A stretch of 64,000 nt of DNA from a virus (taxonomy: Duplodnaviria > Heunggongvirae > Uroviricota > Caudoviricetes): IMG/VR virus record IMGVR_UViG_3300042561_002062, positions 85,525 through 149,524 of that record, one strand, 5' to 3'. Of this stretch, positions 1,485 through 45,807 are shown in pieces. Every line of letters starts with the position of its first letter. The first letter of the stretch is position 1. A program made the translations under genes and the position numbers. The notes beneath the pieces are model-generated. The model was not told the origin of the DNA and did no database searches. It saw only the letters and a list, made by a program, of their open reading frames with translations.

Positions 1485-1760
1485 ATGAAAAATTTAATGC
1501 TCTTTGAAGATTTTCCTACCTATAGAGATACCAAAAGTGGCGTAAAGATTGTTTATTTTTCTAGTGAAGAGGTAGATAAATATGAACGTGATTGGAACTC
1601 TTTACCTATGAAATATCATCAGAATGAATTTTTTACTAAGATTTGGAATAAGATGAAAAGATCTAAAAGCCTAGCAAGAGGGCAATGGGATCAACTCAAA
1701 TTTCTCTTCGATAATGGTAAATCGATGTATGAAATGGGAGTTCTACCAAAAAAATATTAA
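1485..1760 (+). CDS. hypothetical small protein
   Basis: 91-aa ORF, no motif. Confidence 0.4.
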   Translation: MKNLMLFEDFPTYRDTKSGVKIVYFSSEEVDKYERDWNSLPMKYHQNEFFTKIWNKMKRSKSLARGQWDQLKFLFDNGKSMYEMGVLPKKY

Positions 1761-1893
1761 TTTTTTAGGAAGAGACAACTTTTTTTGGATATATACTATA
1801 CTTTTCTCTAAGAAACCTCAAAAATAATTTCATAAAAAGTTTGGTAATCCAAAAACTTTGTATTATCTTTGTAGTGTTGATTTAACAAACTAT

Positions 1894-1967
1894 CGCGGAG
1901 TAGTAGAAGATGGTATCTCGCCAGGCTCATAACCTGGAGATCGCTGGTTCGAGTCCAGCCTCCGCTA
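1894..1967 (+). tRNA. tRNA-Met (anticodon CAT), initiator-like (C1 mismatched with nt 72, as in bacterial fMet)
   Basis: Anticodon arm ccagg-CTCATAA-cctgg, T arm gctggTTCGAGTccagc, acceptor cgcggag/ctccgct; D stem weak. Confidence 0.7.
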
Positions 1968-1991
1968 CAAAAAAACTTACTCTGTTATCAA

Positions 1992-2064
1992 GCGGGAGTA
2001 GCTCAGTTGGTAGAGCACGATCTTGCCAAGATTGAGGCCGTGGGTTCAAATCCCATCTCCCGCT
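1992..2064 (+). tRNA. tRNA-Gly (GCC)
   Basis: acceptor gcgggag/ctcccgc, D arm gctcagttggtagagc, anticodon loop TTGCCAA, T loop TTCAAAT. Confidence 0.85.
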
Positions 2065-2107
2065 CAAAAATTTGGTGAGAGTAAGTTTTTTGATTATCTT
2101 TGTTGAT

Positions 2108-2130
2108 AGTTCTTTGACATCTTGGAAATA
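2108..2130 (+). promoter_or_regulatory. repeated promoter-like motif GTTCTTTGACATCTTGGAAA (copy 1) upstream of tRNA-Thr
   Basis: Near-identical about 20-nt motif containing a TTGACA hexamer also at 3018..3040 and 4113..4135, each 15-50 nt upstream of a tRNA. Confidence 0.5.
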
Positions 2131-2135
2131 AAATT

Positions 2136-2208
2136 GCCTCTATAGCTATAACGGTAGAGCATCGCACTTGTAATGCGAGGGTTGGCGGTTCGAATCCGTC
2201 TGGGGGCT
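2136..2208 (+). tRNA. tRNA-Thr (TGT)
   Basis: acceptor gcctcta/tgggggc (G-U pairs), anticodon arm tcgca-CTTGTAA-tgcga, T arm ggcggTTCGAATccgtc. Confidence 0.8.
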
Positions 2209-2362
2209 CACAAAAGAAAAAACTTTTTGGTGAGGTTTTATGGATGCAATACCCAGTCCTAAAACTATTCAATGTTCAACGAAAGTTGACCACTCGGTGC
2301 AATACCCGAGACATCTCAAGAGTGATGGGATTTGAGAGGTGTGGAGTTTTTTCTTTTCTTAT

Positions 2363-2436
2363 GGTTCGTTAGTAGAGTTGGTTACAATATCGCACTGTCA
2401 CTGCGAAGGTCATGGGTTCGATTCCCATACGAACCG
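2363..2436 (+). tRNA. tRNA-Asp (GTC)
   Basis: acceptor ggttcgt/acgaacc, anticodon arm tcgca-CTGTCAC-tgcga, T loop TTCGATT. Confidence 0.85.
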
Positions 2437-2651
2437 CAATGAGTAAGAGATACTCAGCAGTCTCACCAAAGACTCATTTAATCTATGGTCGGTTCTAAAG
2501 AGGACATCGTCAACGCCTCTTTCGTGGGATTAAAGGCAGGTAGCAGAGCCTCCCAGTAGCTTGGATGTTTTAATGAGGGATGCCTCGCAGGTTTTTAAGA
2601 AATAGAAAACCGAAATAACTACTCACCTGGGATCTCAGGGTGGGAAAACAT

Positions 2652-2725
2652 AGGGGAATATATCAATTGGTTAGATTACGTGCTTTGGGAGCACGAGGTT
2701 GTGGGTTCGAGTCCCGCTTCCCCTA
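2652..2725 (+). tRNA. tRNA-Pro (TGG)
   Basis: acceptor aggggaa/ttcccct, anticodon arm cgtgc-TTTGGGA-gcacg, T loop TTCGAGT. Confidence 0.85.
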
Positions 2726-2859
2726 CGAGGGTATGCATCGAAAGATGTTGTGAGTAACTCGGGTGAGTACGAAACGGACAACAATTCTAGAAGTCCCTTT
2801 TGAGCGAAACCCTTAGGTTGTAGAGGCAGTGGGTCGACACCTCATACCTTCTCTAAAAT

Positions 2860-2958
2860 AGTCAGGTGGCGAAATTGGTAGACGCTAGCTGGAAAGAGTG
2901 ATTTAGGAGTAATTACTAAGTTGGTTCACTCATATAGGTTCGAATCCTGTCTTGACTA
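2860..2958 (+). ncRNA. aberrant tRNA-like RNA A: Leu-type D arm plus T arm and acceptor, anticodon arm replaced by a 6-bp stem (gagtga/tcactc) enclosing a 24-nt loop
   Basis: 5' agtcagg-tg-gcgaaattggtagacgc ... ataggTTCGAATcctgt-cttgact-a; no 5-bp stem / 7-nt loop anticodon arm can be drawn. Confidence 0.55.
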
Positions 2959-3072
2959 CAAAAAAAAAAATAAAGAAAGTGGCGAAAGTTCAAAAAAAAC
3001 ACCTATATTTGTATCACGTTCTTTGACATCTTGAAAACAACCCAGAAACATCTGTGAAGATATAAGTTTCAT

Positions 3073-3144
3073 GCTCCGTTCGTCTAGGGGTTAGGACACC
3101 AGATTTTCATTCTGGTAACAGGGGTTCGATTCCCCTACGGAGTA
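3073..3144 (+). tRNA. tRNA-Glu (TTC)
   Basis: Colinear with the E. coli tRNA-Glu layout: gctccgt-tc-gtctaggggttaggac-a-ccaga-TTTTCAT-tctgg-taac-aggggTTCGATTcccct-acggagt. Confidence 0.85.
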
Positions 3145-3337
3145 CGGAGATAGACAAACCGCATCTATCGGGTCATTGCTCTAGACCTTTAACAGAGCAC
3201 GATTTATCGGGTTATCGCGAAACCAGGTCTTGGAATCAGAAAGATGACAATTTCTCCAAGTAGTCGGACTTTTTTTTGAGGATGCTCACTTTGTTTTTTG
3301 AAAAAGTAAAAAACAAAAAACTACTACTCACTATAAG

Positions 3338-3368
3338 GGGTAAGTGAGGGTTCCGGATAAAACCGGAA
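3338..3368 (+). terminator. intrinsic-terminator-like hairpin inside the tRNA array
   Basis: ggttccgg-ataaaa-ccggaacc followed by a TTTTCTTTT run. Confidence 0.45.
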
Positions 3369-3380
3369 CTTTTCTTTTAA

Positions 3381-3454
3381 GGGCCCTTAGCTCAGTAGGT
3401 TAGAGCGTCTGACTCATAATCAGGTGGTCGTAGGTTCGAGCCCTACAGGGCCCA
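3381..3454 (+). tRNA. tRNA-Met/Ile2 (CAT), second copy
   Basis: acceptor gggccct/agggccc, anticodon arm tctga-CTCATAA-tcagg, T arm gtaggTTCGAGCcctac. Confidence 0.85.
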
Positions 3455-3516
3455 CAAAATATATACATTCTTGAGTTGAAAAACTTAAAGCTATTATATA
3501 GTATAATACTAACTTT

Positions 3517-3591
3517 GGTCCCGTAGCTCAGTCTGGATGGAGCGACTGCCTTCTAAGCAGTAGGTCATTGGTTCGAATCCAATCGGGATCA
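3517..3591 (+). tRNA. tRNA-Arg (TCT)
   Basis: acceptor ggtcccg/cgggatc, anticodon arm actgc-CTTCTAA-gcagt, T loop TTCGAAT. Confidence 0.85.
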
Positions 3592-3780
3592 CAATTACTT
3601 ATTTGAAAAAAATAAAAAGGAACAAAACTTTTCTAATATATACAATATACACATTATGAAAAATCAAATACATAACCAAATTAGTCTTTATCTCCAGAAG
3701 TGGAATGCGTGTGTATTTGCCAAAAATAAACCGAGGTTAGAAATGTTTTGATACTATAAACAACATAAACTAAAACTTAA

Positions 3781-3810
3781 CCTCGGGACAAAATCTCGAG
3801 GTTTTTTGTT
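3781..3810 (+). terminator. intrinsic-terminator-like hairpin
   Basis: cctcggg-acaaaat-ctcgagg (7 bp incl. G-U) followed by TTTTTTGTTTT. Confidence 0.5.
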
Positions 3811-3814
3811 TTAT

Positions 3815-3886
3815 ACGGGCCTGATGTCAACGGCAGACCGTCTGACTTGCAATCAGAACGATTGGGTTCGATTCCCACAGTGTCCA
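3815..3886 (+). tRNA. tRNA-Cys (GCA)-like, possibly degenerate (acceptor stem does not pair well)
   Basis: Good anticodon arm tctga-CTTGCAA-tcaga and T arm tgggTTCGATTccca, but no convincing 7-bp acceptor; a canonical Cys(GCA) exists at 5636..5706. Confidence 0.35.
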
Positions 3887-3892
3887 CAACAA

Positions 3893-3966
3893 GGGGTAAA
3901 AGCACATAAGGATGTGCAACCGCCAAACGGCGGGTGGCTTGGGTTCGAATCCCAGATACTCCACCA
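3893..3966 (+). ncRNA. tRNA-like element with genomically encoded 3' CCA and no canonical anticodon arm
   Basis: 5' ggggtaa ... hairpin gcac-ataaggat-gtgc, hairpin ccgcc-aaac-ggcgg, T arm ttgggTTCGAATcccag, then atactcc-a-CCA. Confidence 0.4.
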
Positions 3967-3970
3967 TTAT

Positions 3971-4041
3971 TGTCCCCTCGTCTAACGGCAGGACAGCAGA
4001 CTTTGATTCTGCTTATCGAGGTTCGAATCCTTGGGGGACAA
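3971..4041 (+). tRNA. tRNA-Gln (TTG)
   Basis: acceptor tgtcccc/ggggaca, D arm gtctaacggcaggac, anticodon arm gcaga-CTTTGAT-tctgc, T arm cgaggTTCGAATccttg. Confidence 0.8.
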
Positions 4042-4136
4042 CGAAAAAAAAAAAGAAAAAATGCTTGGATCGAGAAAGATATCGCACTATCTTTGTAATC
4101 AAATAGAAGGTAGTTCTTTGACATCTTGGAAAATAT

Positions 4137-4208
4137 GCTCTCGTGGCGCAACGGTGGCGCAGGATACTTATATTATCAAGGTTACAGGTTCGAATCCTGT
4201 CGAGAGTA
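4137..4208 (+). tRNA. tRNA-Ile (TAT) (putative AUA decoder)
   Basis: acceptor gctctcg/cgagagt, D arm gcgc-aacggtg-gcgc, anticodon loop CTTATAT with a 4-bp + mismatch stem, T arm acaggTTCGAATcctgt; preceded by the TTGACATCTTGGAAA motif. Confidence 0.65.
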
Positions 4209-4408
4209 CACGTTCCGAAACAAGACAACGGATAGTGTGCCCTACACGATGAGAAACGGAGTGATGTCCGTATGGGAACGTACATTGGTGTATAGGGATA
4301 ACACCAGGGCAAGTCAGCCCGACCTCGTGAGGACGAATGACTATTCCTAACTCAGTGATGAGGACAGCCGTGACACCGGTAAGTTGGATAGAAGAGGGTG
4401 TCAAACAT

Positions 4409-4555
4409 AGTCAGGTGGCGAAATTGGTAGACGCAGCTGTGATGATTTTGCTGGAAGGTGTAACTCCTTAACAAGTAACTCGCGATTACTGTTTAAATAT
4501 TAGCAGGGTTAATCAGTTCCCAATCATCGTGAAGGTTCGAATCCTTCTTTGACTA
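4409..4555 (+). ncRNA. aberrant tRNA-like RNA B (about 147 nt): same acceptor/D arm as A, with about 105 nt of structured insert closed by a 7-bp stem gatgatt/aatcatc
   Basis: agtcagg-tg-gcgaaattggtagacgc-[insert]-gaaggTTCGAATccttc-tttgact-a; insert has nested stems (tgctg/cagca, ggg..ccc). Confidence 0.5.
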
Positions 4556-4639
4556 CTTGAAAATGGTGAAAAATTCTACCAAGAATTTAACATCTCTTAC
4601 CTATTAAGATTTAGGTGACAGTCGGAATAGACGACAAAT

Positions 4640-4713
4640 TCCTCGGTAGCTCAGATGGTTAGAGCACTTGACTGTTAATCAGGGGGTCGTTGGTTCGAGT
4701 CCAACCCGGGGAG
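4640..4713 (+). tRNA. tRNA-Asn (GTT)
   Basis: anticodon arm cttga-CTGTTAA-tcagg, D arm gctcagatggttagagc, T arm gttggTTCGAGTccaac. Confidence 0.8.
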
Positions 4714-4717
4714 CGAA

Positions 4718-4790
4718 GACTTCGTAGCTTAATTGGTAAAGCACCTGGCTTTTAACCAGGGGAGTAGCGGTTCGACCCCGCTCGGGGTCA
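4718..4790 (+). tRNA. tRNA-Lys (TTT)
   Basis: acceptor gacttcg/cggggtc (G-U pairs), anticodon arm cctgg-CTTTTAA-ccagg, T arm agcggTTCGACCccgct. Confidence 0.8.
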
Positions 4791-4796
4791 CATCAT

Positions 4797-4878
4797 ACCG
4801 ATGTGGCGAAATAGGTAGCCGCGCTAGTCTTAGGAACTAGTGTCTTACGACGTGAAGGTTCGAGTCCTTTCATCGGTA
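4797..4878 (+). tRNA. tRNA-Leu (TAG), type II
   Basis: acceptor accgatg/catcggt, D arm gcgaaataggtagc, anticodon arm ctagt-CTTAGGA-actag, long variable arm, T loop TTCGAGT. Confidence 0.85.
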
Positions 4879-4887
4879 CGAAAATTT

Positions 4888-4962
4888 GCACCTTTAGCTC
4901 AGCAGGTTCAGAGCATTTGCCTTACAAGCAAAGGGTCGCTAGTTCGAATCTAGCAAGGTGCA
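4888..4962 (+). tRNA. tRNA-Val (TAC)
   Basis: acceptor gcacctt/aaggtgc, anticodon arm tttgc-CTTACAA-gcaaa, T arm gctagTTCGAATctagc. Confidence 0.85.
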
Positions 4963-4963
4963 C

Positions 4964-5067
4964 CCACTCTTAGTGTTATGTGGTAAAACACACTGACCTT
5001 TGTGTCGCCTGGTACTGCAGTATCCGAACACAGAGCGAGTAAGTTGGTTCGAATCCAACAGAGTGGA
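4964..5067 (+). ncRNA. aberrant tRNA-like RNA D (about 104 nt): acceptor ccactct/agagtgg, D arm and T arm present, anticodon arm replaced by stem tgtgt/acaca enclosing a 22-nt loop
   Basis: ccactct-ta-gtgt-tatgtggtaaa-acac ... tgtgt[cgcctggtactgcagtatccga]acaca ... gttggTTCGAATccaac-agagtgg-a. Confidence 0.45.
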
Positions 5068-5073
5068 CAATAT

Positions 5074-5165
5074 AGTCAGGTGGCGGAATGGTATCCGTTA
5101 CTAATGTGGGAAGACCCCTGCAATGTTCTTAAACCACACTACAGGTTCGAATCCTGTCCTGACTA
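5074..5165 (+). ncRNA. aberrant tRNA-like RNA C (about 92 nt): same acceptor as A/B, internal stem tgtgg/ccaca enclosing a 24-nt loop
   Basis: agtcagg-tg-gcggaatggtatccg ... tgtgg[24 nt]ccaca ... acaggTTCGAATcctgt-cctgact-a. Confidence 0.5.
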
Positions 5166-5308
5166 CAAAACGCAATGAACAGAAGTATGGAACAAAGACC
5201 AGCGCAGGTCTCCATATGGAGTTAGCACCCTCAGCCTGGGCCCAGAGAAAACTCTGATGAAGCTGTTAAGATTGGAGCGAGATGGGTACTCCAACATTGT
5301 GTTTATCT

Positions 5309-5381
5309 GGTGATGTAGCTCAGTTGGTAGAGCAAGGGACTGAAAATCCCTGTGTCGGTGGTTCGATTCCGTCCATCACCA
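5309..5381 (+). tRNA. tRNA-Phe (GAA)
   Basis: acceptor ggtgatg/catcacc, anticodon arm aggga-CTGAAAA-tccct, T loop TTCGATT. Confidence 0.85.
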
Positions 5382-5390
5382 CACAAATAC

Positions 5391-5472
5391 GCCTGTATCG
5401 CATAGCGGCAATTGCAACTGACTGTAAATCAGTCCTCATTCGAGTCCGGAGGTTCGAGTCCTTCTGCAGGCA
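5391..5472 (+). tRNA. tRNA-Tyr (GTA), type II
   Basis: acceptor gcctgta/tgcaggc, anticodon arm actga-CTGTAAA-tcagt, long variable arm, T arm ggaggTTCGAGTccttc. Confidence 0.8.
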
Positions 5473-5477
5473 CACAT

Positions 5478-5551
5478 TGGAATATAGCTCAGTTGGTTAG
5501 AGCATTTGACTGATATTCAAAAGGTCGCTGGTTCGAATCCAGCTATTCCAA
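5478..5551 (+). tRNA. tRNA-Ile (GAT)
   Basis: acceptor tggaata/tattcca, anticodon arm tttga-CTGATAT-tcaaa, T arm gctggTTCGAATccagc. Confidence 0.85.
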
Positions 5552-5556
5552 CATAA

Positions 5557-5628
5557 GGCCCCTTAGGCTAATGGATAAACTGCTTCGCTACGGACGAAGT
5601 GTTGAACGTTCGAATCGTTTAGGGGCTA
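5557..5628 (+). tRNA. tRNA-Arg (ACG)
   Basis: acceptor ggcccct/aggggct, anticodon arm cttcg-CTACGGA-cgaag, T arm gaacgTTCGAATcgttt. Confidence 0.8.
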
Positions 5629-5635
5629 CAATTCG

Positions 5636-5706
5636 GTACTGTGTCCGACTGGCAAGGTGGGGCTCTGCAAAAGCTCTTATATTGGTTCAAATCCAATCAG
5701 TACCTC
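5636..5706 (+). tRNA. tRNA-Cys (GCA)
   Basis: acceptor ggtactg/cagtacc, anticodon arm gggct-CTGCAAA-agctc, T arm attggTTCAAATccaat. Confidence 0.8.
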
Positions 5707-5714
5707 AAAAATTA

Positions 5715-5786
5715 CGGGTGTGGCTCAATTGGTAGAGCAATGGTCTCCAAAATCATAGGCTGGGAGTTCGAGTCTCTCCACCCGTG
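5715..5786 (+). tRNA. tRNA-Trp (CCA)
   Basis: acceptor acgggtg/cacccgt, D arm gctcaattggtagagc, anticodon arm atggt-CTCCAAA-atcat, T loop TTCGAGT. Confidence 0.85.
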
Positions 5787-5793
5787 CTTGAAT

Positions 5794-5867
5794 AGCGAAG
5801 TAGCTCAGTTGGTTAGAGCACAGGATTCATATCCCTGAGGTCAGCAGTTCAATTCTGCTCTTCGCTA
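5794..5867 (+). tRNA. tRNA-Met/Ile2 (CAT), third CAT species
   Basis: acceptor agcgaag/cttcgct, D arm gctcagttggttagagc, anticodon loop TTCATAT, T arm agcagTTCAATTctgct. Confidence 0.8.
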
Positions 5868-5876
5868 CCCATTTAT

Positions 5877-5951
5877 GGTGGTCGTAGCTCAGATGGTTAG
5901 AGTGCCTGATTGTGGTTCAGGAGGTCGTGGGTTCGATTCCCATCGGTCACC
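5877..5951 (+). tRNA. tRNA-His (GTG) with encoded G-1 and C73
   Basis: g-gtggtcg acceptor, anticodon arm cctga-TTGTGGT-tcagg, T arm gtgggTTCGATTcccat, discriminator C. Confidence 0.85.
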
Positions 5952-5956
5952 CCAAA

Positions 5957-6043
5957 GGAAGATTGGCTGAGAGGTCTATAGCGGCACCCTGCTAAGGTGT
6001 TAGTCGGGAAACTGGCTCATTGGTTCGAATCCAATATCTTCCG
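5957..6043 (+). tRNA. tRNA-Ser (GCT), type II
   Basis: acceptor ggaagat/atcttcc, anticodon arm gcacc-CTGCTAA-ggtgt, long variable arm, T arm attggTTCGAATccaat. Confidence 0.85.
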
Positions 6044-6113
6044 CAAAAAAAAAAACCTGGTTTGTTTTCAAGATTGTCTAGAAACAATTACCTATCTAAA
6101 TTATATACCCAAT

Positions 6114-6563
6114 ATGAAAAGATTCAGAACCGTAGAAGGTCAATATGTTGATGTTGTTGAACATACACTTTCTATTATGAAAAAACATCCGAATATGAAA
6201 GTTCATATCGGAACAGATTCACAAAACCTAGGTATAGAAACCTCGTTTGTGACTGCTATTGCCTACAGGTTTGGAATCCGTGGTGTGCATTACATCTTTA
6301 CAAAAGAAAAAATACCTCTAGTTAGAGATACTTTTTCTAGACTATTTGATGAATGTGCAAGAACTATTGAAATTGCTCAATGGTTTTCTGATAAAATTAA
6401 TGTTGTAGTAGAAATAGATATGGATTACAACCAAGACGAGTTTTCAGTAAGTCATAAACTTATTGGTGCTACTCGTGGTTGGGCACTATCACTTGGATAC
6501 AAAGTAAATGTAAAACCTGATATTCAGATAGCTACAAAAGCTGCGGATTATCATTGTAGATAA
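6114..6563 (+). CDS. hypothetical protein (start moved to the first ATG downstream of tRNA-Ser)
   Basis: Track ORF 5997..6563 begins inside tRNA-Ser; internal ATG at 6114 (MKRFRTVEG...) is the plausible start. Confidence 0.5.
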   Translation: MKRFRTVEGQYVDVVEHTLSIMKKHPNMKVHIGTDSQNLGIETSFVTAIAYRFGIRGVHYIFTKEKIPLVRDTFSRLFDECARTIEIAQWFSDKINVVVEIDMDYNQDEFSVSHKLIGATRGWALSLGYKVNVKPDIQIATKAADYHCR

Positions 6564-44784: not shown

Positions 44785-45807
44785 ATGGAAAGAAAACTAG
44801 CAACTTTAAGAAGAATAAAAAAACTGATGCCTATTGAAGGAGCAGATGCCATAGAACTAGCTCTTGTGGATGGATGGCAAGTTGTAGTAGCAAAAAATGT
44901 TGGATATCGTCAGGGAGATCTAGTTATCTACTGCGAGATAGATTCTTTTTTACCGATTAGAGAAGAGTTTGAATTTTTACGTAGAACATCTTATAAAAAA
45001 ATGGCAGATAGGGAAGGATTTCTTCTTAAAACTATTCGGCTACGCGGTCAAATTTCTCAAGGTTTGATACTTCCTATTACCGTTCTAGGTGATGATACAT
45101 CTGGATTATACGAAGGTATGGATGTTACTGAAAAATTAGGTATCGTTAAATACGAAGCACCAATACCTGCATCTTTACAAGGAAAGGTTAAGGGTAATTT
45201 TCCATCATTTATTCCTAAAACAGACGAAGAAAGAGTTCAGAATCTAGAAAAAGAATACAATGAACTAAAATTCAGTTCTAAACATCAACTTTACGTAACT
45301 GAAAAATTAGATGGTTCTTCTTATACGGTCTATCTTAATCGTGGTGAATTTGGTGTTTGCTCACGAAATCTTGAACTATTAGAAACAGAGGATAACACCT
45401 ATTGGAAAGTAACCAGAGATCTTAAAATAGAAGAAAAGTTAAGATCACTTGGTAGAAATATATCTCTACAAGGTGAGCTTATTGGTGAAGGTATCCAAGG
45501 AAATCCATACAAACTTCGTGGGCAGACAGTAAAGTTTTTCACCGGATATGATATAGATAGAGGGCAGCGTATTGGTATTCGTGATTTTTTAAATTTACTT
45601 AAAAATCTTGGGCTTGAAAGTGTTCCGGTTCTTCAAATGGGTGATTTTACCCTACCGGAAACTGTATCAGATATGCTAAAATGGGCAGAAGGTCCGTCGG
45701 TTCTTAATCCGAACTTTCCAAGAGAAGGTGTAGTAGTCCGTAGTCTTGATGGAACTGTCTCTTTCAAAGCTATATCAAATCAATTTCTTCTAAAAACAGG
45801 TGGTTAA
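44785..45807 (+). CDS. ATP-dependent RNA ligase (KxDG)
   Basis: VTEKLDGSSY motif I, 340 aa. Confidence 0.65.
   Translation: MERKLATLRRIKKLMPIEGADAIELALVDGWQVVVAKNVGYRQGDLVIYCEIDSFLPIREEFEFLRRTSYKKMADREGFLLKTIRLRGQISQGLILPITVLGDDTSGLYEGMDVTEKLGIVKYEAPIPASLQGKVKGNFPSFIPKTDEERVQNLEKEYNELKFSSKHQLYVTEKLDGSSYTVYLNRGEFGVCSRNLELLETEDNTYWKVTRDLKIEEKLRSLGRNISLQGELIGEGIQGNPYKLRGQTVKFFTGYDIDRGQRIGIRDFLNLLKNLGLESVPVLQMGDFTLPETVSDMLKWAEGPSVLNPNFPREGVVVRSLDGTVSFKAISNQFLLKTGG

Follow-up and report, generated by a model that had tools for sequence, protein, structure and literature searches.

Four families of structured non-coding RNAs between the tRNA genes of large uncultured phages

The tRNA island of the phage DNA analyzed here, a stretch of 64,000 nt that we refer to as the window, contains four unrelated, conserved and folded non-coding RNA families, sp1 to sp4. 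All four lie on the plus strand: sp1 (2438..2651, ~214 nt) fills the whole slot from tRNA-Asp to tRNA-Pro, sp2 (2727..2859, ~133 nt) extends from tRNA-Pro to tRNA-like element A, sp3 (4210..4407, ~198 nt) from tRNA-Ile(UAU) to tRNA-like element B, and sp4 (5166..5308, ~140 nt) from tRNA-like element C to tRNA-Phe. By sequence matches, the families are present in hundreds of uncultured large phages. An earlier note on this DNA had proposed structured non-coding RNAs in a phage tRNA cluster at these places, and conservation together with covariation bears the proposal out for all four stretches. We consider it probable that sp1 to sp4 are independent, trans-acting stable RNAs that are released by tRNA-processing enzymes, and that sp4 is a homo-oligomer.

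Our annotation with ARAGORN and Rfam placed tRNA-Asp at 2363-2437, tRNA-Pro at 2652-2726, tRNA-Ile(UAU) at 4137-4209 and tRNA-Phe at 5309-5382, together with three tRNA-like elements on the plus strand. Element A (2860..2958; Rfam tRNA 32.6 bits) forms the downstream boundary of sp2, element B (4408-4558, or more narrowly 4409..4555) is the downstream neighbour of sp3, and element C (5074..5165; Rfam tRNA 35.4 bits) is the upstream neighbour of sp4. They belong to one family, TL, with the common frame AGUCAGGUGGC...GGUUCGAAUCCUGUCYUGACUA, and in close relatives the element at the place of C has a wholly different interior. Given these boundaries, the four stretches are complete inter-tRNA slots on the tRNA strand, and the coordinates and the placement between tRNAs given for them earlier were correct. 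The tRNAs of the island have no encoded CCA. The GC content of the slots had been described as raised over a background of about 30%. The enrichment is genuine (0.44, 0.46, 0.50 and 0.47 for sp1 to sp4, values reached by only 0.6–4% of 170-nt segments elsewhere in the window) and GC is not uniform, but the background is 34.8% over the window. The mean GC of the tRNAs is 52%.

The structural evidence comes from relatives. A search for conservation in related phages recovered homologues of sp1 to sp4 among 462 related loci from IMG/VR, whose viral contigs measure up to 465 kb, and pairing was expressed as the percentage of cells that pair with the observed partners versus partners that had been slid. 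For each family, none of 500 shuffles reached the observed covariation score. The slots had also been called rich in hairpins. By folding energy this is near chance, with weak z-scores of -1.4, -1.4, -0.5 and -2.1 for the window copies of sp1 to sp4; by covariation with relatives it holds. Of the two hairpins quoted as examples, ttggagcgagatgggtactccaa is the covarying helix P4 of sp4, and cactcggtgcaatacccgag lies at ~2293-2312, outside all four stretches, in a Thr-Asp spacer that has no detectable homologue.

Homologues of sp1 were found in 151 of the 462 loci, and the matches listed place its 5' motif on more than 118 IMG/VR contigs. Over 35 sequences, 85.1% of the cells are paired, compared to 35–45% with slid partners. 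The fold begins with a 5' hairpin (2441-2455) and a second hairpin (2459-2474), the loop of which forms a pseudoknot with 2486-2489; all five pseudoknot pairs covary in these sequences. A hairpin at 2499-2520, the pairing of GGGAUUAAAGG (2526-2536) with CCUCCC (2549-2554), and hairpins at 2575-2586 and 2590-2611 follow, and the last hairpin (2624-2642) carries an AUCUC loop able to pair with the loop of the 5' hairpin. The terminal nucleotides are highly conserved (AAUGAGUAAGAG at the start, GGGGAAACAU at the end). A tRNA or tRNA-like gene is located within 12 nt upstream of 61% of the sp1 elements and within 12 nt downstream of 81%. The settings of sp1 across phages are Asp-Pro, TL-TL (as in locus L138, between two tRNA-like elements), TL-Gly and TL-Leu, and between Asp and Pro it is present in some close relatives and absent in others. 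An nhmmer search with the sp1 profile identified a second, diverged sp1-like element (3172..3332, plus strand, E = 1.2e-6) in the tRNA-Glu to tRNA-Met spacer, with weak homologues in 7 loci; as read from the sequence, it is followed by a hairpin and a T-run at ~3345-3378. This element was missing from the earlier list of stretches.

The sp2 family is small, with 7 members, and was found in 6 of the 462 related loci. Its cells are 97.3% paired, compared to 36–63% with slid partners, and both sides have changed in 12 pairs. A closing helix (2727-2735 with 2843-2851) encloses a hairpin at 2736-2747, a long-range helix between GGG (2761-2763) and CCC (2810-2812), within the strings located at 2760-2765 and 2808-2813, and a nested arm at ~2776-2796; a terminal hairpin is located at 2829-2843. 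All 7 members start directly behind the 3' end of a tRNA or tRNA-like element, and in 5 of them a tRNA-like element follows downstream.

Homologues of sp3 occur in 98 of the 462 loci, and more than 118 IMG/VR contigs carry its motif among the matches listed, which include some chance matches to the sp3 pattern. The RNA consists of a hairpin at 4214-4232, a hairpin at 4235-4247 with a GCCC loop that forms a pseudoknot with GGG at 4272-4277, a hairpin at 4256-4271, a variable middle, the conserved CUAUUCCUAAC, a hairpin at 4351-4362, GGACAGCC, and a 3' hairpin (4372-4402), the loop of which is conserved. In 38 sequences, 79.9% of the cells are paired, compared to 35–45% with slid partners, and all four pseudoknot pairs covary. 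The RNA starts with CACGUU, directly behind either a tRNA-like 3' end or an AT-rich, promoter-like box that ends at ACGUU, and in several loci a T-run comes after its 3' hairpin, as in a terminator. Some sp3 copies, as far as their sequences tell, are probably stand-alone genes with a promoter-like box and a terminator of their own.

The earlier suggestion that sp2 and sp3 might be part of the same molecules as elements A and B is disfavoured. Elements A and B each close their own 7-bp acceptor stem, and helices internal to sp2 and sp3 close these RNAs or form their ends. What comes after sp3 varies among relatives (a tRNA, a tRNA-like element or a terminator), and the flanking partners of sp1 differ as well.

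The sp4 family was found in 135 of the 462 loci. More than 118 IMG/VR contigs among the matches listed contain its core motif, whereas among 185,579 genomes the core was present on only 4 small MAG contigs. Over 54 sequences, 90.1% of the cells are paired, compared to 29–45% with slid partners. Helix P1 (5169-5177 with 5295-5303) is 99% paired. The P2 arm (5185-5217) ends in an apical hairpin (5197-5210) with the loop AGCGCA, which is GUCGAC in 50 of the 54 sequences and has the variants GUGCAC and GCGC, and CACCC (5226-5230) pairs with GGGU in the loop of the covarying P4 hairpin ttggagcgagatgggtactccaa (5272-5294). Between them lies a palindromic decamer, CUGGGCCCAG (5236-5245), that is 97.8% self-complementary. 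At least eight variants of it occur, all self-complementary, and all five pairs covary, including the two central adjacent bases (GC in 51 sequences, CG in 2, AU in 1). It is an RNA-level rather than a DNA-level feature because G-U pairs are present. Since the decamer covaries through its centre, which no intramolecular hairpin would account for, these palindromes suggest RNA–RNA self-association, and sp4 looks built for pairing with copies of itself; conserved palindromes were not found in sp1, sp2 or sp3. For some members of the family, the decamer has an alternative pairing with a downstream segment (only 64% paired), and it could be a switch instead of a dimer interface. In the window and in close relatives sp4 lies directly 5' of tRNA-Phe, and across phages it precedes Phe, Met, Glu or TL, with a tRNA or tRNA-like gene within 12 nt upstream in 52% and downstream in 65% of the cases.

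None of the four slots matches a catalogued RNA or contains a conserved reading frame. Rfam 15 (4227 models, including RNase P, tmRNA, group I/II introns, Y RNA, 6S, GOLLD, ROOL and the self-cleaving ribozymes) yielded only tRNAs when the window was scanned at gathering scores, and no match inside the four stretches came up when 1750-6150 was scanned permissively, with E up to 5. The Rfam scan that the earlier note had called for thus neither turned the stretches into tRNAs nor assigned them to a known family. ARAGORN, at default settings or with introns of 0–400 nt and a lowered threshold, and RF00005 found no tRNA in them, and the covarying helices define folds other than the cloverleaf. The absence of a plausible ORF was also confirmed: mechanical ORFs of at most 78 aa overlap the stretches, but the homologues have no conserved reading frame, since their stop-free frames vary in frame and strand and the peptides are unconserved. 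A blastn comparison of sp1, sp3 and sp4 with 50,697 GenBank phage records, T4-like phages included, returned nothing.

Of 391 elements counted, 332 have a tRNA within 1 kb and 59 do not, compared to only 34% of the locus bases within 1 kb of a tRNA. The strand is that of the nearby tRNAs in all 332, and opposite in none. Where tRNA or tRNA-like genes flank the elements, they are usually 1–6 nt away, and the elements begin 0–2 nt past tRNA or tRNA-like 3' ends. The sp elements have several features of the phage tRNA-island RNAs, the kind that includes T4 species 1 and 2, GOLLD and ROOL, namely a phage genome, a place in or beside a tRNA cluster on the tRNA strand, a covarying fold and a non-coding nature; from their boundaries, they may also be cut from the tRNA precursor and accumulate as discrete stable species.

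Based on this anatomy, we propose that sp1 to sp4 would be co-transcribed with the tRNAs in polycistronic precursors, and that the maturation enzymes of the adjoining tRNAs and tRNA-like elements would free them by "tRNA punctuation". RNase P, in cutting the 5' end of the tRNA that follows, would make the 3' end of an sp RNA, and its 5' end would result from 3'-end processing of the preceding tRNA, presumably of the RNase Z type because no CCA is encoded. Such a release by RNase P and RNase Z, as the earlier note had suggested, fits the strand and the abutting boundaries. Where a flanking tRNA is lacking, the same RNA would be produced from its own promoter to its own terminator hairpin, a mode that some relatives may use for sp3. 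Once mature, the RNAs are predicted to be stable, compact and pseudoknotted, with many invariant unpaired bases, which would suggest an action in trans on a specific partner. With its two self-complementary sites, the 6-nt palindromic apical loop and the 10-nt palindrome, sp4 would most likely act as a homodimer or higher homo-oligomer, like ROOL and GOLLD. As to the target, we can only guess at tRNA or translation metabolism, or counter-defence; within the window, we found no targets complementary to the conserved loops.

The regular boundaries could also have another meaning. One or more of the modules might be a self-cleaving ribozyme that cuts at one of its ends, 5' or 3', and thereby matures the adjacent tRNA, in the manner of theta ribozymes. 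The modules do start 0–2 nt past tRNA or tRNA-like 3' ends with conserved termini (AAUGAGUAAGAG and GGGGAAACAU in sp1, CACGUU in sp3), the tRNAs lack an encoded CCA, and ribozymes typically have pseudoknotted cores in which unpaired bases are invariant. Moreover, the phage encodes an RNA ligase (44785-45807) with PHA02142 OB-fold and RNA_ligase domains, which we read as the DRB0094 type, and theta-ribozyme phages show a 140-fold enrichment of ligases annotated as "DRB0094 family" (PMC10879173). However, no Rfam ribozyme family was matched with E up to 5, and a loose home-made pattern of the HDV-like fold, an approximate test, found nothing at any tRNA 3' end; its 3 matches, compared to 1.85 expected from shuffles, all lie at one terminator hairpin. 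The modules are two to four times the size of theta ribozymes, and stand-alone sp3 behind a promoter-like box has no upstream tRNA to cut. The distance that applies to theta ribozymes (within ~5 nt of a CCA-less tRNA 3' end) is found here, though position alone does not confer membership. We regard this explanation as unlikely.

The association with tRNAs raises the question of whether the stretches are cis-acting parts of the precursor, such as folding insulators, processing guides or attenuators, with no life after cleavage. Beside tRNAs they always lie on the tRNA strand, and in the window, as in close relatives, tRNA-Phe directly follows sp4. Yet one and the same module, sp1 or sp4, has different tRNA neighbours across phages, close relatives without sp1 between Asp and Pro retain both tRNAs, and stand-alone sp3 genes exist. 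Pseudoknots, invariant loops and putatively intermolecular palindromes exceed the needs of a spacer, and a purely cis-acting role seems improbable to us.

The modules might instead be Y-RNA-like partners of a phage Ro-like protein, acting with the phage RNA ligases in RNA repair or quality control; this we judge very unlikely. The window encodes a 487-aa protein of phrog_850, "RNA-binding protein" (E = 8e-144; DUF2828, DUF7788), whose gene adjoins an Rnl1-like ligase. Y RNAs of bacteria and phages are described as tRNA-linked and tRNA-like (PMC4201824), and sp2 and sp4 are closed by a terminal 5'/3' stem, as in Y RNAs. On the other hand, the Y_RNA and YrlA models of Rfam (RF00019, RF02553) match only true tRNAs (YrlA at E 0.003–0.46 in the scan of 1750-6150), a search beside the Ro-like gene found no Y RNA, and that gene occurs in only 1 of 374 module-bearing loci, whose flanks reach at most ~7 kb. 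The phrog_850 protein has no PDB sequence match, and "Ro-like" is a reading of its annotation. Finally, decayed tRNAs, intron-split tRNAs or small coding genes, with a GC content due to tRNA-derived composition, are scarcely credible: degenerate tRNA-like elements abound in the array and ORFs overlap the stretches, but compensatory changes keep non-cloverleaf folds, no tRNA was detected in the slots even with introns and a lowered threshold, and the stop-free frames differ among members.

Stable RNAs released from tRNA precursors have a precedent, to which the earlier note had already drawn the analogy. The T4 species 1 and 2 (rnaC, rnaD) are small stable RNAs of unknown function among phage tRNA genes, processed by the host tRNA-processing enzymes from the same precursors. 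The sp RNAs also lie between phage tRNA genes and would likewise be processed from a precursor. They differ in that blastn shows no sequence relationship of sp1, sp3 and sp4 to the T4 RNAs. The sp RNAs also make up four families that include pseudoknots, and they are spread across hundreds of uncultured large phages. Another comparison is with GOLLD and ROOL, heavily structured, pseudoknotted phage or prophage RNAs of unknown function. They are "often near tRNA islands" and assemble into homo-oligomers by kissing loops with covarying intermolecular pairs (PMC12286853). sp4 too has covarying self-complementary loops, from which we infer a possible oligomer, but sp1 to sp4 measure 130–215 nt compared to 500–800+ nt (a 3- to 6-fold difference), and the Rfam models of GOLLD and ROOL do not match them with E up to 5. 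Theta ribozymes, which are minimal HDV-like ribozymes starting within ~1 nt of the 3' end of CCA-less phage tRNAs, have predicted hosts that are ~90% Bacteroidota and co-occur with a DRB0094-type RNA ligase (Kienbeck et al. 2024, PMC10879173). The sp modules share the start at CCA-less tRNA 3' ends and, by our reading, a ligase of that domain type, but they are much larger, reach up to the 5' end of the following tRNA as well, and, by the approximate pattern, the HDV-like nested double pseudoknot with its catalytic C is found at no tRNA end here. YrlA and Y RNAs are similarly non-coding and linked to tRNA genes, with a protein annotated as Ro-like in the same genome, but the sp modules have no tRNA-like domain and no YrlA or Y_RNA match. 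The HIV-1 dimerization initiation site is a hairpin loop with a 6-nt palindrome (GCGCGC or GUGCAC) and unpaired flanking purines that nucleates homodimers. The P2 loop of sp4, GUCGAC plus A with the variants GUGCAC and GCGC, resembles it as a structural analogy only, since the molecules are unrelated, the biological settings differ, and the design principle alone is common to both. In our best reading, by analogy, the sp RNAs may be small relatives in kind of T4 species 1 and 2, GOLLD and ROOL.

A plus-strand tRNA island occupies positions 1890-6045 of the window and comprises 23 standard tRNAs together with several aberrant tRNA-like elements. Four of its slots are filled by non-coding RNA families, all on the plus strand: sp1 (2438-2651) lies between tRNA-Asp and tRNA-Pro, sp2 (2727-2859) between tRNA-Pro and the tRNA-like element TL_A, sp3 (4210-4407) between tRNA-Ile(UAU) and TL_B, and sp4 (5166-5308) between TL_C and tRNA-Phe. 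Around the island lie genes of a large phage, encoding glycosyltransferases, NAMPT, PRPP synthetase, two RNA ligases, an endolysin-like protein and a phrog_850 'RNA-binding protein', and the window sequence recurs in many metagenome assemblies. The earlier note had singled out the four stretches as GC-rich, and their GC contents of 0.44, 0.46, 0.50 and 0.47, respectively, against 0.348 for the window bear this out; such values are matched by just 0.6-4% of 170-nt windows elsewhere in the window, and the mean for the island tRNAs is 0.52. Its view that the stretches hold no plausible ORF also stands, as open frames without stops turn up in varying frames and on either strand from member to member, with unconserved peptides. 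The folding energies are unremarkable against shuffled controls (z of -0.5 to -2.1), and thermodynamics alone is thus insufficient for a claim of structured RNA. Of the hairpins quoted in that note, the one at 5272-5294 on the plus strand proved to be a conserved helix of sp4, whereas the other, at about 2293-2312, is part of the Thr-Asp spacer instead of the four stretches listed, and lacks homologues. This spacer (2210-2362) has the top folding z in the island (-3.5), with no detectable homologue in the fetched loci.

The case for structure is carried by covariation. Helices were read from MAFFT alignments, which were not structure-fitted, and the named pairs were counted against slid partners and shuffles. 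For sp4 (54 sequences), 90.1% of the cells are paired versus 29-45% with slid partners, and the closing stem P1 is 99% paired, with 7/8 pairs changed on both sides. For sp1 (35 sequences), the corresponding values are 85.1% versus 35-45%, and all five pairs of a pseudoknot between a hairpin loop and a downstream strand covary (5/5). Similarly, sp3 (38 sequences) is 79.9% paired versus 35-45%, and its loop-to-downstream pseudoknot covaries at 4/4 pairs. The small sp2 family (7 sequences) is 97.3% paired versus 36-63%, with 12 pairs changed on both sides. In each of the four families, the observed covariation score was reached by 0/500 shuffles. A second pseudoknot and a GGGAAUAAAGG/CCUCCC helix in sp1 are our reading by eye, and stand outside the covariation count because MAFFT misaligned the central sp1 region. 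No sequence similarity is shared among the four families.

Can these RNAs be assigned to a known class? None of the four stretches matches an Rfam family, either at gathering thresholds or permissively (E up to 5). An HDV-like or theta ribozyme was also considered, and here a loose home-made pattern gave no match at the tRNA ends; the negative result matters since phage theta ribozymes are located in just such places (PMC10879173). Missed tRNAs would be another possibility, and ARAGORN, run with introns allowed and a lowered threshold, did return extra tRNA-like elements, none of them inside the four stretches. Coding potential is contradicted by open frames that are inconsistent from member to member, and a hammerhead-like CUGAUGA in the sp4 of the window is unconserved in relatives. 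The T-box-like GGGUGG at the sp1 3' end and the RNase P-like and Y-RNA-like resemblances were impressions, unsupported by any Rfam model. The conserved loops have no antisense targets within the window, where the only matches are the elements' own antisense strands. No description of sp1-sp4 was found in the literature searched, a comparison outside which lies the catalogue of 10,006 candidate viral structured RNAs (PMC10690425). Structured RNAs of unassigned function in phage tRNA clusters are a kind already known, of which sp1-sp4 seem to be new families.

All four families recur in related phage genomes, as the earlier note had led us to look for. Twenty-three IMG/VR loci with the same kind of island were reached via the RNaseH-like (DUF458) gene that directly follows the island, and in these relatives sp1 is 70-94% and sp4 83-90% identical (BLAST and nhmmer); sp2 and sp3 homologues were found in more distant loci, fetched through the TL motif. 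For sp1, sp3 and sp4, motif scans of IMG/VR yielded >118 contigs per family among the matches listed, and for sp2 they yielded 6 true extra copies. Among 462 related loci, sp1 occurs in 151, sp4 in 135, sp3 in 98 and sp2 in 6; sp1 and sp4 co-occur in 48, and sp1, sp3 and sp4 in 7 more. By blastn, sp1, sp3 and sp4 have no match in GenBank phages, and the tRNAs are the sole matches of the whole array there. The sp4 core was detected in just 4 short MAG contigs out of 185,579 prokaryotic genomes. Synteny searches via the PaaA-like gene led to relatives at 77% identity without a tRNA array beside that gene, and no relatives of the 91-aa upstream ORF were found. Between Asp and Pro, sp1 is polymorphic for presence or absence among close relatives, which offers natural 'knock-outs' for comparison.

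Gaps in the arrays of relatives also vary. A Glu-Met gap of 450 nt interrupts tightly packed tRNA runs in four loci (L130, L132, L134 and L139), L135 and L137 have 209 nt between Gly(GCC) and Gly(UCC), and each insertion is found in some close relatives and missing from others, which suggests more modules or small genes moving in and out of the islands. In the window, the Glu-Met spacer (3146-3380) holds a second, diverged sp1-like element (3172-3332), followed by a hairpin and a T-run; its low GC content (39%) is probably the reason why it had been passed over.

The positions of the elements bear on whether they are cis-acting spacers or RNAs in their own right. All 332 elements with a tRNA within 1 kb lie on the tRNA strand (332/332), and 85% of the elements, versus 34% of the locus bases, are within 1 kb of a tRNA. 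On array maps, the modules are separated by 1-6 nt from the tRNA or TL gene at either end; such a gene lies within 12 nt upstream and downstream of 61% and 81% of sp1 copies, and of 52% and 65% of sp4 copies. Most sp3 copies begin with CACGUU straight after the ...CUGACUA of a TL element. The partners of one module differ between phages, and in one locus (L138) sp1 sits between two TL elements. In several sp3 copies without an upstream TL element, an AT-rich TAnnTAAAG-type box ends at ACGUU and a T-run follows the 3' hairpin, which to judge from the sequence is the ordinary layout of a stand-alone small-RNA gene. The strand bias, tight gaps, varied partners and stand-alone sp3 copies argue for discrete trans-acting RNAs and against cis-acting spacers. 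They also argue for module ends that would be set by transcription signals or by processing of the flanking tRNA-like structures.

These tRNA-like structures, TL_A (2860-2958), TL_B (4408-4558) and TL_C (5074-5165), all on the plus strand, share one common frame: an invariant AGUCAGG/CCUGACU acceptor, discriminator A, a Leu-type D arm and the T arm ACAGG-UUCGAAU-CCUGU, around a hypervariable middle. The family spans 158 loci in all (e.g. L138:980-3290), with 280 copies, representing 214 unique sequences, of 71-278 nt and up to 9 per locus. The interiors fall into 166 clusters, including 133 singletons, with no consistent anticodon, and at one syntenic site they are entirely different among close relatives. 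TL elements border sp modules and small ORFs alike. They may serve to punctuate processing, or as a scaffold displaying variable RNA.

Other unusual tRNA-like genes were noted in the island. The element at 4964-5068 combines a CCACUCU/AGAGUGG acceptor and a normal T arm with a long, irregular central part, and its 89-98% identity across 12 related loci exceeds the conservation of most neighbours. A 74-nt element (3893-3966) resembles the tRNA-like domain of tmRNA alone (Rfam tmRNA, 18.3 bits, E = 1.7e-4, sub-gathering), with a GGGG start, a G3-U70 pair, a T arm and an encoded CCA, and two short hairpins replace the D and anticodon arms; it adjoins a weak tRNA-Ala(UGC) (3817-3886) whose acceptor stem is mismatched. 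Homologues of the two occur in 5 and 10 loci, respectively. The anticodon UAU is uncommon in bacterial tRNA-Ile; the island encodes such a tRNA (4137-4209), kept in relatives' islands, alongside three CAU tRNAs and tRNA-Ile(GAU). A 14-nt motif, TCTTTGACATCTTG, occurs three times in the window (2111, 3020 and 4115), 13-40 nt 5' of tRNA-Thr, tRNA-Glu and tRNA-Ile(UAU), and in relatives also upstream of tRNA-Gln; at two sites (2111 and 4115) it is preceded by a TATCTTTG box. As a candidate promoter or leader signal, the motif would split the island into transcription units, and we infer a resemblance of the TAnnTTTG box to Bacteroidota promoters.

Possible protein partners are encoded in the window. 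The phrog_850 'RNA-binding protein' (DUF2828 and DUF7788; 18114-19577, minus strand) is possibly Ro-like, and beside its gene lies that of an Rnl1-like RNA ligase (20167-21180, minus strand); a second ligase, with PHA02142 OB-fold and RNA_ligase domains (44785-45807, plus strand), is DRB0094-type by our reading. The three proteins jointly hint at a toolkit for RNA repair or tRNA-end healing. The vicinity of the Ro-like gene gave no Y RNA, and Ro-like and RNA ligase genes are co-located with modules in just 1, 12 and 2 of 374 loci (15-kb excerpts). The DUF458 gene (PF04308; 6114-6563, plus strand), at the island edge in the window, is inside the islands of relatives; it is present in 58/374 loci, which were retrieved by means of tRNA-island RNA motifs or the DUF458 gene itself, and its product is a candidate island-associated nuclease. 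We regard all of these as tentative leads.

We propose that the sp modules are co-transcribed with the tRNAs and would be released by RNase P at the next tRNA and by 3' processing of the previous one. The freed modules may fold into compact pseudoknotted RNAs that act in trans, sp4 possibly as a homo-oligomer. Phage tRNA islands are usually viewed as a supply of tRNAs for codon usage or anti-defence, and to our knowledge the other RNAs of such islands are few (T4 species 1/2, GOLLD, ROOL), with no known function. One island with four further classes, each with invariant loops and, on our reading, pseudoknots, and none in Rfam, points to a larger catalogue of 'orphan' structured RNAs, and three of the four each span more than a hundred uncultured large phages. 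Embedding in tRNA arrays and release by tRNA enzymes may indicate a general phage route to stable RNAs.

Conserved palindromes are found only in sp4. The GUCGAC loop of sp2 is confined to the window copy, and therefore no dimer claim is made for that family. In sp4, the apical loop of the P2 arm reads GUCGAC followed by A in 50/54 sequences; one sequence has GUGCAC instead, and the subgroup to which the window copy belongs has AGCGCA. The decamer of the P3 arm (5236-5245) is self-complementary in 97.8% of cells and has at least eight variants, including CGAGGCCUCG, CGAUGCAUCG, CUGGGCCCAG, CGGUGCACCG and CGAGCGCUCG. All of its pairs covary (5/5), including the central adjacent one (GC 51, CG 2, AU 1), and seven G-U pairs break the DNA palindrome and keep the RNA pairing. 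An alternative intramolecular helix with half of the decamer is just 64% paired. Since neighbouring bases are unable to pair inside one hairpin, the simplest reading of the covariation is that two molecules pair as a 10-bp duplex. Having two self-complementary sites, sp4 could form dimers or larger assemblies, by analogy with ROOL and GOLLD, likewise phage RNAs near tRNA islands, which form homo-oligomers through kissing loops (PMC12286853). At about 140 nt, sp4 would be a small, tractable system for natural RNA-RNA self-assembly, and its covarying palindromes point to compensatory mutants.

A joint reading, which we offer tentatively and consider somewhat doubtful, is that sp4 forms RNA-only self-assembling units, that the TL elements are the punctuation releasing them, and that phage tRNA islands are general production lines for structured RNAs. 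The GUCGAC loop, akin to the DIS kissing loop, and the palindromic 10-bp duplex would give each sp4 molecule two self-complementary faces. Once freed from the tRNA precursor, the RNA might form dimers, rings or cages, with the TL elements, invariant in frame and otherwise hypervariable, releasing the other modules as well. Such structures would parallel the nanocages of ROOL and GOLLD in miniature and would have evolved independently of them.
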